Below are positions 13,850-17,938 of a DNA stretch of 64,000 nucleotides, piece after piece. The notes beneath the pieces are model-generated. The model saw only the letters and a list, made by a program, of their open reading frames with translations, searched no databases and was not told where the DNA came from. A program made the position numbers and the translations under genes. This stretch comes from Thermodesulfobacteriota bacterium (GTDB lineage Bacteria > Desulfobacterota > Binatia > Bin18). How positions within the stretch are numbered: the first letter of the stretch is position 1; each line of letters begins with the position of its first letter. Location of the stretch: contig OZ219926.1 of assembly GCA_964291405.2 (NCBI GenBank), forward strand, positions 4,512,001 through 4,576,000, in the 5' to 3' direction.

Positions 13850-14887
13850 ATGGACCTTTCTGATTTCGACTACGACCTGCCGGCCGAGTTGATCGCTCAA
13901 GAGCCGGCGAAACAACGCGACCAGTCCCGTCTTCTATGTGTGGGGCGAGGCGACGCTTCCCTCTCGCATCATCGGTTTGCGGACCTGCTCGGTCTGTTGC
14001 CCAAAGACTGCGTACTGGTCTTGAACAATACCAGGGTTATCCCGGCTCGGTTACGCGGGAAGAAGACGACGGGCGGAAAAGTCGAACTCCTTCTGGTTCG
14101 ACGCACCGCTGCTGAGGAAGAAGTCTGGCAGGTCCTGTGTAAAGGCGGCCAGAATCAGAAAGTCGGTGGACGCATTAATTTCGCGGATAATTTTTGGGGA
14201 AAGTGGGTGGAAGCCCCGAGGGCAGGGCAGGGTCATATCCGATTTTTCCCGGAAAAGAATTTTCAACGACTTGTCGAACAGCACGGAGAGGTCCCGCTGC
14301 CGCCGTATATCAGGCGCTCGCCGGGCCGGCACGCAGCCGACCGGGAGCGCTACCAAACGGTGTATGCCCAGCAACCCGGTGCGGTTGCCGCTCCGACTGC
14401 CGGGCTGCATTTTACGCCGGCATTGCTCGACAAGCTGGTCCAGAGTGGCATTCATCTGTGCTTTGTGACCCTGCACGTTGGTCTGGGTACGTTTCAGCCT
14501 ATCCGGGTAGAGCAGGTTGAGACGCATACGATGGGAGCCGAATCGTATGAAATCGATGTGGCAACCGCAGAATGCATCAACGCGGCCAAAGCGTCCGGGA
14601 GAAAAATCATTGCCGTTGGGACAACCACCACACGAGCGCTCGAATCGTCAGCCCAACAGACGGGCCACGTCCAGCCCGGACCGAATCAGTCCAAGTTGTT
14701 CATCTATCCCGGCTATGAATTTCAGGTGATAGACGGCTTGATCACCAATTTCCATCTGCCCCGTTCAACCCTGTTGCTGCTCGTATCAGCCTTTACCGGA
14801 CGAGATCGCATACTGCACGCCTACGCGGAAGCGGTAAAGCAGCGCTACCGGTTTTACAGTTATGGAGATGCAATGTTGATTGTGTGA
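13850..14887 (+). CDS. queA: S-adenosylmethionine:tRNA ribosyltransferase-isomerase
   Basis: FDYDLP.ELIAQ.P, PLPPYI, AAPTAGLHF, VGTTT.RALE, TNFHLP.STL, YRFYSYGDAM. Confidence 0.98.
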   Translation: MDLSDFDYDLPAELIAQEPAKQRDQSRLLCVGRGDASLSHHRFADLLGLLPKDCVLVLNNTRVIPARLRGKKTTGGKVELLLVRRTAAEEEVWQVLCKGGQNQKVGGRINFADNFWGKWVEAPRAGQGHIRFFPEKNFQRLVEQHGEVPLPPYIRRSPGRHAADRERYQTVYAQQPGAVAAPTAGLHFTPALLDKLVQSGIHLCFVTLHVGLGTFQPIRVEQVETHTMGAESYEIDVATAECINAAKASGRKIIAVGTTTTRALESSAQQTGHVQPGPNQSKLFIYPGYEFQVIDGLITNFHLPRSTLLLLVSAFTGRDRILHAYAEAVKQRYRFYSYGDAMLIV

Positions 14888-14929
14888 GAGAGGGTTGGCT
14901 TGGAGTTGTTCCCCCGTAACGAGGCCGAG

Positions 14930-15351
14930 CTATGCTGCTATCCGTTCCGTAGGTATCGGAACGTTGACGTAGGCAAAGACCAGTTCCTGAAATTCGGAAT
15001 TCTCCAGATGGTGCTCCACTGATTGACGTTCGGGGACCGCTTGGCCAGCTTCCCGATACGCTTCCACATTAACCCGGATCGCTTCACTAGAGCAGTTTCC
15101 TCCGTGGTGTAGCGAGGTGCTCTCCAGAGTTCCGTAGGGTGCATCCCATGCACCACCTTGCCCCGGTGCGCAGGGCGCACCCTACGGATCGGGAAACGCG
15201 CGGAGGCCGTTGGACGCTACACTAATGTGAATTTTGCGCTAACCGCTTGCTTTGCCGCTTCGATCGTTTCTCCGTATGTCACGATTGCTAAATCGGGCAC
15301 TTGTACGGCAAACCCTACGTCCGTTTGTTCCAGCATAATGAGGTATCGCGT
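14930..15351 (-). pseudogene. hicB: HicB-family antitoxin gene split by a 150-bp MITE
   Basis: Removing 15090-15241 gives the in-frame sequence (T/M)RYLIMLEQTDVGFAVQVPDLAIVTYGETIEAAKQAV|SEAIRVNVEAYREAGQAVPERQSVEHHLENSEFQELVFAYVNVPIPTERIAA*; the likely start codon now reads ACG. Confidence 0.8.
15090..15239. mobile_element. MITE with TA target duplication carrying an inverted REP doublet
   Basis: TA at 15088-89 and 15240-41; imperfect TIRs GAGCAGTTTCC..GTGTAGCG / CGCTACAC..TTTTGCGC; internal TCCGTAGGGTGC...GCACCCTACGGA (15131-15188). Confidence 0.78.
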
Positions 15352-15370
15352 AACGGAACCTGTAGTCTGA

Positions 15371-15871
15371 TTACTGCAATACGGGAGCCACGGCAAAGCT
15401 TTTTATCCAGTTGCTCTGTTCAATAGTATCCGGGACTGTACATCCTCGTGCCTGACTAATTTGGACCAGGGCAGCTTCCGGGTCTATCCCGGCTGAGACG
15501 AGTAAGAGAGCCGTTATCAGGCTTGAGCGTCCAATCCCTTGCCGACAATGGACGGCTACGGATTTGCCCTCTTCAAGAGATCTCTCCAGATTCTGTACTA
15601 AGTCAGTCGTTGTTTTTCGTGACGCAGGGACCCCTCGGTCCTGTATCGGGTAGGCGTAGAATTGGATGCCCTGTACCCGGCACAAAAGTTCTTCCTGATT
15701 CAGTTCAAGCTCGGTATTTTCATCGGGGGCGAGCAGTGAAACCACTACATCCAGCCCGGCTTCCTGCCAGGAGCGGACTTCCTCTTCGAGCCAGTCGCCT
15801 CCGCGCGGACGCGGTACTATCGCCAGACGCCCAGGCCAGGGGCCTGCTATCCAATACGCTGTTGTTCTCAT
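15371..15871 (-). CDS. Cys-based protein-tyrosine/dual-specificity phosphatase family protein
   Basis: VHCRQGIGRS (HCx5R); PIQDRGVP acid loop; VPDT.EQ. Confidence 0.92.
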   Translation of the reverse strand: MRTTAYWIAGPWPGRLAIVPRPRGGDWLEEEVRSWQEAGLDVVVSLLAPDENTELELNQEELLCRVQGIQFYAYPIQDRGVPASRKTTTDLVQNLERSLEEGKSVAVHCRQGIGRSSLITALLLVSAGIDPEAALVQISQARGCTVPDTIEQSNWIKSFAVAPVLQ

Positions 15872-15884
15872 GCAAGTCTCTTCG

Positions 15885-16133
15885 TTACGGCAGTGGCTCC
15901 TTGTCAAAAAGCTCACGGGGGAGCGCGTCTACGTCAACCCCTCGGTCTCGTAAGACTTTAATCCGATGATGACCATCGATCATAGTTCCATCGCGCTTGA
16001 CCTTGAGCGCCCCTTCTTGTCCAGGACTGAGCGATTCCATGAGTTCTTCAGTTGTCAGTTTATCAAATTGGGCCAACTTAGGCTGACTTAATGAACTTTC
16101 AGGGTGTAACGACTTTAAGGATGATTGATCCAT
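15885..16133 (-). CDS. Small ParB/sulfiredoxin-like domain protein
   Basis: 82 aa; 'GTMIDGHHRIKVL' matches the ParB/Srx (I)DGxHR motif; 13 nt upstream of the phosphatase gene. Confidence 0.7.
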   Translation of the reverse strand: MDQSSLKSLHPESSLSQPKLAQFDKLTTEELMESLSPGQEGALKVKRDGTMIDGHHRIKVLRDRGVDVDALPRELFDKEPLP

Positions 16134-16374
16134 AATTCAGGAGATCTCGTCCGAGAGAAATGTGGATGTTTCTATTCGTGTAAAGTCCATTCATATTACT
16201 ATTATTTCCTTCTAGTTGCTCAACTACAATCAAGCTGCCTAATGAAATGGGTAAACTCTACAACTTCTTGCGGTCAAACGCGTCGCCGCCTGCCGCTCAC
16301 CCATCGGTAGTGATGCTTTGTCGCATTGATTCAACCTTATGACCTTTACATGTCGCGGGCAGCCCTACAAGTAG

Positions 16375-17938
<1,564 letters not shown>

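Follow-up and report, generated by a model that had tools for sequence, protein, structure and literature searches.

We analysed a 64,000-nucleotide stretch of a Thermodesulfobacteriota bacterium (GTDB Binatia, Bin18; contig OZ219926.1, positions 4,512,001 to 4,576,000 of the forward strand), called the window below at its full length, and in it a pair of adjacent genes: one for an 82-aa protein with the motif IDGHHR (the small protein) and, 13 nt downstream, one for a phosphatase with an HCx5R active site. The linkage of the two genes is essentially absolute among their relatives, the small protein is predicted to adopt the ParB/Srx fold, and members of a sister clade of the same small domain appear to be C-terminal tips of polymorphic toxins. 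We see about an even chance that the pair is an intracellular, self-contained and horizontally mobile toxin-antidote cassette, in which the phosphatase would act catalytically against a ParB-fold toxin that uses ATP. A module of this kind had been proposed in an earlier note on the same DNA, whose description of the two open reading frames (ORFs), their spacing and their motifs proved correct in every detail.

Results

The small gene and the phosphatase gene form a constant pair

A word-based search found 239 database relatives of the small protein, 45-144 aa long; the 120 that were listed have 76-125 aa, most of them 77-100, and are 61-91% identical to the window small protein. In a genome scan that took one genome per species, 80 loci were returned from metagenome-assembled genomes (MAGs) labelled Binatia, Acidobacteriota, Planctomycetota, Chloroflexota, Thermodesulfobacteriota, Myxococcota and others, and in 80/80 of them a phosphatase homolog, 41-85% identical to the window copy, follows the small gene on the same strand. 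The tblastn matches of the two genes lie some 6-70 nt apart, and the mechanically called ORFs of the pair are within a few tens of nucleotides of each other or overlap in most loci, the longer overlaps being due to upstream start codons chosen by the ORF caller. No third gene was common to more than 10 of the 80 loci. The two reading frames are thus no chance ORFs.

The two domains also occur in one ORF, at locus L064 (258 aa), in the protein P0123 (251 aa) and in 5 of the best 150 cluster representatives of the profile search described below. The model of the fused P0123 reached a predicted local distance difference test (pLDDT) score of 93.9 and a predicted template-modelling (pTM) score of 0.73, which are scores alone and silent on domain packing; the complex prediction from both alignments scored 0.00 and gives no verdict on binding.

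Sequencing runs may hint at transcription. Part of the stretch is held by 20 runs, five of them labelled sponge metagenome, of which one is among the seven runs that hold at least half of its words. A metatranscriptome-type library (X19) yielded a 201-nt contig that covers 15841-16036 with no differing letters and so bridges the junction of the two genes, from the 3' end of the small gene through the spacer into the beginning of the phosphatase gene. In an RNA library (X20), contigs of a relative, 90-95% alike, cover a portion of the small gene and also an uninterrupted hicB that continues into the 3' end of the phosphatase gene. These contigs are only a hint of co-transcription of the pair, DNA carry-over being possible.

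The small protein is predicted to have the ParB/Srx fold

The IDGHHR motif occupies residues 52-57 of the small protein. Residues that are invariant in 22 aligned small proteins include H10, K19, K44, G54, H55, H56, R57, R64, D67 and R73; G54 and R57 form a GxxR phosphate-binding (Box II / P) motif within D-G-H-H-R, whose equivalence to G105-N106-H107-R108 of the toxin ToxB and to GCHR of sulfiredoxin (Srx) was taken from the papers' descriptions and not from an alignment. An AlphaFold2 model built from the 22-sequence alignment (pLDDT 80.5) was compared with 48,161 PDB representative chains using VIA-align, and ranks 1-10 were all taken by ParB/Srx-fold chains (Z 6.0 to 3.3, 56-70 residues aligned). 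The best match was Arabidopsis sulfiredoxin (AtSrx; Z 6.0, 70 residues, root-mean-square deviation 3.1) and the second the free serine kinase SerK (Z 5.3, 22% identity), the remaining eight being SbnI, KorB, human Srx, Atu1540, PadC, pNOB8 ParB, Spo0J and Osa. The top Foldseek matches belonged to the same families (E 0.3-5). Because the top ranks were exclusively ParB/Srx-fold chains, the small protein is predicted to adopt this fold, in agreement with the earlier note, with Z-scores that are modest for so small a domain.

Profile libraries gave fainter signals. The small protein matched no Pfam family at E<=1, ParB_N (PF02195) included; its PHROG matches were ParB-like but weak (best E 0.0023), and an Atlas cluster with ParB_N on 28% of its members scored 0.90. 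Nothing was found at E<=10 when the small-protein profile was searched against PDB sequences, and the sole NCBIfam match, aroma-sacti, was sub-threshold. The features of a canonical partition ParB were not found in this single 82-aa domain, which has neither a helix-turn-helix (HTH) nor a dimerisation domain. For the neighbourhood, Pfam families were tallied in 74 upstream and 74 downstream flanking ORFs by a longest-ORF rule, with the two sides counted separately, and no ParA-type family was among the 25 most frequent. The earlier note had argued from the lack of an HTH and of a parA neighbour that a partitioning role is unlikely, and both observations hold.

The phosphatase is conserved in its catalytic residues

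The best Pfam match of the phosphatase was Tc-R-P (PF22785, 'polymorphic toxin system DSP-PTPase', 1.2e-10), followed by PTP-SAK and DSPc, all above the cut-offs. Its relatives among PDB sequences were Tk-PTP, SsoPTP, KAP and PRLs (about 1e-7), and the phosphatase domain of a fused homolog resembled KAP (1fpz; Foldseek E 1e-10, TMt 0.81). The structural neighbours (KAP, VHZ, SsoPTP and PRLs) are mostly protein phosphatases, which leaves the substrate unfixed. Among the homologs covering the active site, HCx5R was kept in 102/102 by pattern, and the general-acid Asp was likewise present in 102/102, in 92 by a strict pattern and in the other 10 by reading of the printed stretches. Two further motifs, RPRGGDWL and ARGxPVP(E/D)T, are invariant and particular to this phosphatase family. 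With these catalytic residues conserved, selection appears to act on the enzymatic function of the phosphatase.

A sister clade of the small domain sits at the tips of polymorphic toxins

A profile search of 1.8 billion cluster representatives returned 654 relatives of the small domain at E<=1e-3. In 29 of the best 150, the domain lies at the extreme C-terminus behind at least 100 residues. The sequences of these long carriers include RHS core ends and HINT 'LVHN' ends, and Pfam confirmed RHS repeats and pretoxin HINT (PT-HINT) domains, so that, by its domain make-up, the arrangement appears to be a polymorphic-toxin architecture. We added 80 metagenome loci through alignment of carrier proteins, and the resulting 160 loci were classed with hidden Markov models for the domain, the phosphatase and the next gene. 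After removal of six loci whose domain matches were only partial, 154 were usable. The phosphatase was present in 108 of these and an all-helical protein of ~112 aa, from a single family, in 43; three ended within 60 nt of the domain, and none had both. The helical-partner clade aside, the phosphatase was the next gene on the same strand in 108/108 related loci with room downstream, and in the sister clade ORF clustering placed the helical family as the next gene in 40/44 loci.

The helical family (L100-L179; for example, L146:592-930 and L100:1678-2025) follows domains that are RHS/PT-HINT-borne or orphan. It has no Pfam match and contains recurring 'ELT..ARDTYE' and 'INE..HR' stretches, and judged from its sequence and position it is probably a new immunity family.

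The two partner types correspond to two clades. In a quick maximum-likelihood tree (146 distinct rows, only 82 columns), one branch with a Shimodaira-Hasegawa-like approximate likelihood ratio (SH-aLRT) support of 99 splits 38 immunity-linked rows from 105 phosphatase-linked and three truncated ones; the consensus sequences of both clades are closely alike by eye. When the best 150 representatives were scored against two clade profiles (A, phosphatase-linked; B, immunity-linked), 25/29 long carriers scored as immunity-linked and 5/5 phosphatase fusions as phosphatase-linked. The A-like representatives comprised 78 short proteins, 15 with mid-length extensions, five fused to the phosphatase and four long proteins; three of these four were within 3 bits of the other clade, and the fourth, P0143 (PT-HINT), was clear by 15 bits.

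RHS or contact-dependent inhibition (CDI) carriers for the window's own clade were considered and rejected, the five 'longer' matches of the word search being fusions or read-throughs and P0143 the only carrier to score clearly as clade A. In P0277 (296 aa) a TPR upstream ORF, and in P0121 (876 aa) an NTPase-like one, runs into the small gene or a remnant of it; both are probably read-throughs or chimeric calls.

The earlier note had stated that the fold occurs as toxin tips, and the relatives agree: a C-terminal tip on a carrier together with an immunity gene of its own was found in the sister clade, and the window clade is stand-alone. The window small protein thus appears to be a close stand-alone relative of a toxin tip and itself no polymorphic toxin, and in its clade the immunity position seems to be taken by an enzyme.

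The pair is patchy and can lose its small gene

The pair is single-copy in the genome of the window. An even sample of 201 genomes from across the phylum had it in one genome only, that of the window itself. In the genus, the small gene was found in 7/25 genomes and the phosphatase in 9/25, and the small gene alone in 0/25. In G205 and G210 the phosphatase is intact, with a break at about residue 5, and the small gene is lost. An HEPN-like N-terminal region is joined to the phosphatase in G205 (pEK499_p136, E 0.0048; RNALAH by eye), and in G210 the genes upstream of the phosphatase are, by eye, of HigA type, DUF433 type and PIN type. In G216 (L009, L087) both genes have decayed at the same site, with two stops in the small gene and four in the phosphatase gene in the translation of the locus. 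For a toxin and its antidote one would expect just such an asymmetry, with the phosphatase outliving the small gene, though the numbers are small.

Within the genus the pair always lies between queA and tgt, usually with hicB downstream, and the upstream gene varies (a Mrr_cat fragment, a PLD-like gene of 463 aa or an HEPN-like gene of 217 aa). The distance from queA to tgt is ~1487 bp in the window (14888-16374) vs 47, 77 and 125 bp in G212, G110 and G215 of the same genus; since the empty site is only this long in three congeners, the stretch is an insert, and the antisense position of the pair within it is as the earlier note had described. The queA/tgt site is a cargo hot spot in the genus (loci L001-L005, L009, L095, L096 and L180): three genomes have nothing there, G221 has hicB and no other cargo, and the rest carry varying combinations of an Mrr_cat fragment, the PLD-like gene, HEPN-like, HigA-like and DUF433-like/PIN-like genes (the HigA-like, DUF433-like and PIN-like ones as judged by eye), the pair and hicB. 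A link to queuosine was considered for the pair and rejected because the queA/tgt site is confined to the genus.

Outside the genus, the pair lies mostly co-directional between housekeeping genes and not in defence islands. The families counted upstream include a P450-reductase fusion (8), trmFO-type GIDA (8), cdsA (7), gltB (3-4) and gatC (3), and downstream WS/DGAT (8), TauE (6), amidase (5), dxr (4) and a gltD-like family (3-4). Same-locus flanking by the listed families, determined from neighbour clustering and example loci, gave three recurrent same-orientation sites (L001-L080), namely gatC/amidase, gltB/gltD-like and cdsA/dxr. Several pair sites are tRNA-related (queA/tgt, trmFO, gatC/gatA), which may be chance, expression hitch-hiking or a hint at the target.

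The layout is that of a type II-like module, with two small, adjacent, co-oriented genes that are patchy and horizontally spread, and the pair behaves as a small selfish or accessory cassette and not as a pathway gene.

A possible mechanism and the evidence that weighs against it

In the toxin-antidote reading, the small protein would be a bare ParB/Srx-fold nucleotide-binding domain of the same family as the RHS/PT-HINT killing tips. By analogy with ToxB, it would bind ATP via the GxxR motif (G54-H55-H56-R57), and an ATP-dependent reaction, most plausibly phosphate transfer to a cellular acceptor, would harm the cell. The phosphatase, sitting in the immunity slot in place of a binding-type immunity protein, would take the phosphate off again, whether the target or the toxin carries it, and so keep the cell alive. 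We infer that the small protein is toxic, uses ATP and transfers phosphate, and that the phosphatase acts by catalysis. That the gene in this slot encodes a catalytically conserved phosphatase points to a phosphoester as the outcome of the toxic act, and an ATP-dependent phosphorylating toxin is favoured because phosphotransferase members of the fold (Srx, SerK and SbnI) are among the best structural matches. A wider claim would be that ParB-fold toxins kill by ATP phosphorylation of a conserved cellular target and not by ATP hydrolysis or DNA cleavage, which would make the pair the first kinase-type toxin with a cognate Cys-phosphatase antidote; we regard this as doubtful.

A toxin with a cognate phosphatase antidote is the best-supported reading because the computable tests that could have told against it, on the fold, on the linkage and on the toxin-tip relatives, all came out in its favour. 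The part of the earlier proposal that fared less well is the simple eraser, which is a poor match for phosphatases fused to unrelated effectors. Eighteen longer proteins carry the same phosphatase family, with 43-87% identity to the window copy; in 15 the phosphatase is complete. The fusion partners (P0276-P0292) are GmrSD_N+HNH, R2K ATP-grasp (four proteins), GNAT, ORF6N, an alpha/beta hydrolase and an HEPN-like region, chemically unrelated domains joined to phosphatases that are 49-60% identical, and four more fusions have an unassigned region of ~270 aa with a possible PD-(D/E)xK-like motif read by eye. GmrSD_N itself contains a ParB/Srx-fold NTPase (PMC4619093). To judge from these domain compositions, an eraser of one kinase mark cannot explain all of the fusions.

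Several further observations weigh against the toxin-antidote reading. The order of a small gene followed by a larger one is the antitoxin-toxin order of many type II systems, and Pfam detected in neither protein a DNA-binding domain that could serve autoregulation. The fusions of the small domain to the phosphatase could equally well be two-domain enzymes or fused toxin-antitoxins. The small protein is also the better conserved of the two: outside the genus, and across phyla, it is 55-72% identical to the window copy, vs 41-63% for the phosphatase. The few columns behind the clade tree belong on the same side of the balance. Finally, in the available text of the ToxB preprint, only conversion of ATP to ADP is reported in vitro (10.64898/2026.05.05.722872).

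Alternative readings

Since one erased mark cannot serve all the fusion partners, the phosphatase may be a general regulator or sensor that restrains toxic effector domains in trans or in cis, with the ParB-fold domain as its commonest partner; release would follow a signal, such as oxidation of the catalytic cysteine or binding of a phosphorylated ligand that arises during phage attack, and the pair would be an abortive-infection or stress module. The variety of fused effectors (GmrSD_N+HNH, R2K ATP-grasp, GNAT, ORF6N and HEPN-like), the fusions with the small domain, and the genus hot spot with its toxin-antitoxin- and defence-type genes, where the upstream neighbour is Mrr-like, PLD-like or HEPN-like, all speak for such a role. 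We nevertheless consider it rather unlikely. The 18 longer fused forms are few beside hundreds of pairs, the flanks outside the genus are housekeeping genes and not defence islands, and PADLOC gave no match at E<=0.01 for either protein, the best being a type II methyltransferase model for the small protein (E 0.049).

A little less probable still, in our view, is that together the two proteins make up a single accessory enzyme or phospho-relay without toxicity, in which the ParB/Srx domain binds or activates a nucleotide or phospho-substrate that the phosphatase then processes. The strict co-occurrence and repeated fusions would follow naturally, as would the strong conservation of both partners and the resemblance to SerK, SbnI and Srx, and the pair often lies co-directionally a few to some tens of nucleotides from metabolic or tRNA-related genes. 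An enzyme of this kind is, however, hard to square with nearest relatives of the small domain that are exported toxin tips with an immunity gene, or with a distribution that is very patchy even within the genus. Nor does any third gene or pathway recur in more than 10 of the 80 loci, and there are genomes in which the phosphatase has remained on its own and one in which both genes have decayed.

An exchange of roles, in which the phosphatase would be the toxin and the small upstream protein the antitoxin, fits the order and the sizes of the genes in many type II systems, as well as the name of the best Pfam match, which refers to polymorphic toxin systems. We consider it improbable because the phosphatase survives alone, intact and without the small gene, in G205 and G210; in addition, it is the small domain and not the phosphatase that stands at RHS/PT-HINT tips, and the 18 longer phosphatase proteins have no RHS or PT-HINT in precomputed Pfam lists.

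The cysteines of PTP-type phosphatases are easily oxidised, and sulfiredoxin is the best structural match of the small protein (Z 6.0). The repair reading of the earlier note, in which an Srx-like small protein uses ATP to restore the over-oxidised phosphatase cysteine, is nonetheless very improbable: such repair fails because the small protein is without any cysteine in all 22 aligned sequences, the sulfiredoxin signature F-G-G-C-H-R being replaced by one with His at the catalytic Cys position of GCHR (motif as given in PMC4619093), and moreover the sister clade consists of toxins and the phosphatase persists without its supposed repair partner.

The locus and its hicB remnant

The features of the locus are listed in Table 1; the pair is antisense to the plus-strand queA and tgt.

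Table 1. Annotated features between and including queA and tgt, in window positions
Feature	Position	Strand	Description
queA	13850-14887	plus	
hicB-like 3' fragment	14930..15088	minus	ORF 14930..15067 corresponds to the C-terminal half of relatives' intact HicB-like proteins
MITE-like repeat, 154 bp	15089..15242		Inserted in hicB; outside the module
hicB-like 5' fragment	15243..15336	minus	Pfam match of intact relatives
Phosphatase gene, 166 aa	15371..15871	minus	DSP/PTP-type cysteine phosphatase; HCRQGIGRS, Asp in PIQDRG; start ATG at 15871, stop 15371-15373; predicted antidote
Spacer, 13 nt	15872..15884	minus	From small-gene stop to phosphatase ATG
Small gene, 82 aa	15885..16133	minus	ORF; minimal ParB/Srx-fold domain, DGHHR; predicted ATP-dependent toxin component
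tgt	16375-17592	plus	

The neighbouring hicB, which the earlier note had called decayed, is indeed disrupted: the gene is split at 15088/15243 by a 154-bp repeat, and relatives have undivided copies of 89 aa that match Pfam HicB_lk_antitox (E 1e-12). The repeat has 34 matches in the window's own genome, of which 24 besides the hicB copy are near full length at 89-97% identity. It is missing at the hicB site in G205 and G221, and the RNA-library contig of the relative joins 15088 to 15243, skipping exactly the 154 bases. The repeat resembles miniature inverted-repeat transposable elements (MITE) or repetitive extragenic palindromic (REP) sequences; about 40 matches are present in the congener G205, and the depth of a DNA run rises more than 100-fold over it. 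A HicAB module, with an intact hicB and an upstream hicA, was not found in the window, where hicB is split; in the window as in relatives, it is the phosphatase gene that lies upstream of hicB, no search aimed at hicA having been made.

Discussion

The closest known parallel is ToxB, a toxin of the ParB-CTPase fold that forms the C-terminal end of certain CdiA proteins (Kaljevic et al., bioRxiv 2026, 10.64898/2026.05.05.722872). According to the available text of that preprint, ToxB has a GNHR phosphate motif, its specific binding of ATP is essential for toxicity, hydrolysis is slow, at about 300 ATP per hour, and the immunity protein iToxB occludes the ATP site; its authors leave the route from ATP binding to cell death unresolved and allow for an ATP-derived product with cellular cofactors. 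As far as that text describes it, ToxB shares with the window protein a minimal ParB-type nucleotide-binding fold without HTH or dimerisation domain, a GxxR motif in which Arg is preceded by His (GNHR in ToxB, GN[HT]R in the sister clade, GHHR in the window, matched by description), and a protector gene directly after the toxin gene, with the sister clade on polymorphic-toxin carriers. Unlike ToxB, the window protein is stand-alone, intracellular and shorter, at ~80 aa, and it falls outside Pfam ParB_N, the basis of the survey in the ToxB preprint; and unlike iToxB, which is a binding protein, the putative protector in the window is an enzyme. The likeness to ToxB was drawn from the published description.

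ParB-fold toxins had been predicted in 2012 (PMC3482391) and, to go by the parts of both sources at hand, were first characterised in 2026 (10.64898/2026.05.05.722872). In the accessible portion of the former, Zhang et al. describe Tox-ParB domains with a conserved DGHHR on RHS/HINT carriers, predict a nuclease, and report Imm20, Imm27 and SuFu as the immunity families. The DGHHR motif, the ParB fold and the RHS/HINT carriers in relatives are common to Tox-ParB and the window family, whereas the partners differ, being here a Pfam-less helical family of ~112 aa or a phosphatase; this comparison too is by description, no Pfam model matching the window family.

The window phosphatase shares its fold, its HCx5R loop and its general-acid Asp with KAP/CDKN3, VHZ/DUSP23, SsoPTP, Tk-PTP and the PRLs, and differs from them in the invariant RPRGGDWL and ARGxPVP(E/D)T motifs of its own family and in its fixed genomic partner. 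Pairs of a writer and an eraser are familiar from DarT/DarG and from Tre1/Tri1 of the type VI secretion system, in which ADP-ribose is erased by macrodomain or ARH enzymes. The window pair would follow the same logic, with an enzyme in the antidote position, a putative phosphate mark in place of ADP-ribose and a Cys-phosphatase as the eraser.

ParB-fold toxins, toxin-antitoxin cassettes and enzymatic antidotes are thus each known, and the pairing of a stand-alone, Pfam-less relative of ParB-fold toxins with a Cys-phosphatase was not found in the literature searched. No paper on a ParB-like protein paired with a DSP/PTP phosphatase came up in that search, which left supplements aside, and in a survey of ParB-CTPases (10.1101/2025.10.10.680097), 'phosphat' occurs five times and the 12 passages at hand name no phosphatase partner. 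A 2023 study by Burroughs and Aravind, reportedly the source of Pfam PF22784/PF22785, may already describe the association.

The family is widespread, with hundreds of members in MAGs of Acidobacteriota, Planctomycetota and Chloroflexota, in Binatia-labelled ones and in others, and the small proteins, having no Pfam model, escaped the survey based on PF02195. Should the two proteins instead form a harmless two-subunit enzyme, the pair would be of interest only as a new small family of enzymes. A relative of a toxin tip that is accompanied by a catalytically conserved phosphatase instead of a binding-type immunity protein gives an independent hint, from genomes, at a phosphoester as the toxic product, and the cognate phosphatase would be a ready tool with which to test this idea. 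The finding is of interest because the question of how ParB-fold toxins kill would become directly testable: if the kinase-type reading is true, a substrate-trapping mutant of the phosphatase could pull out the target, with a bearing on ToxB-like toxins.

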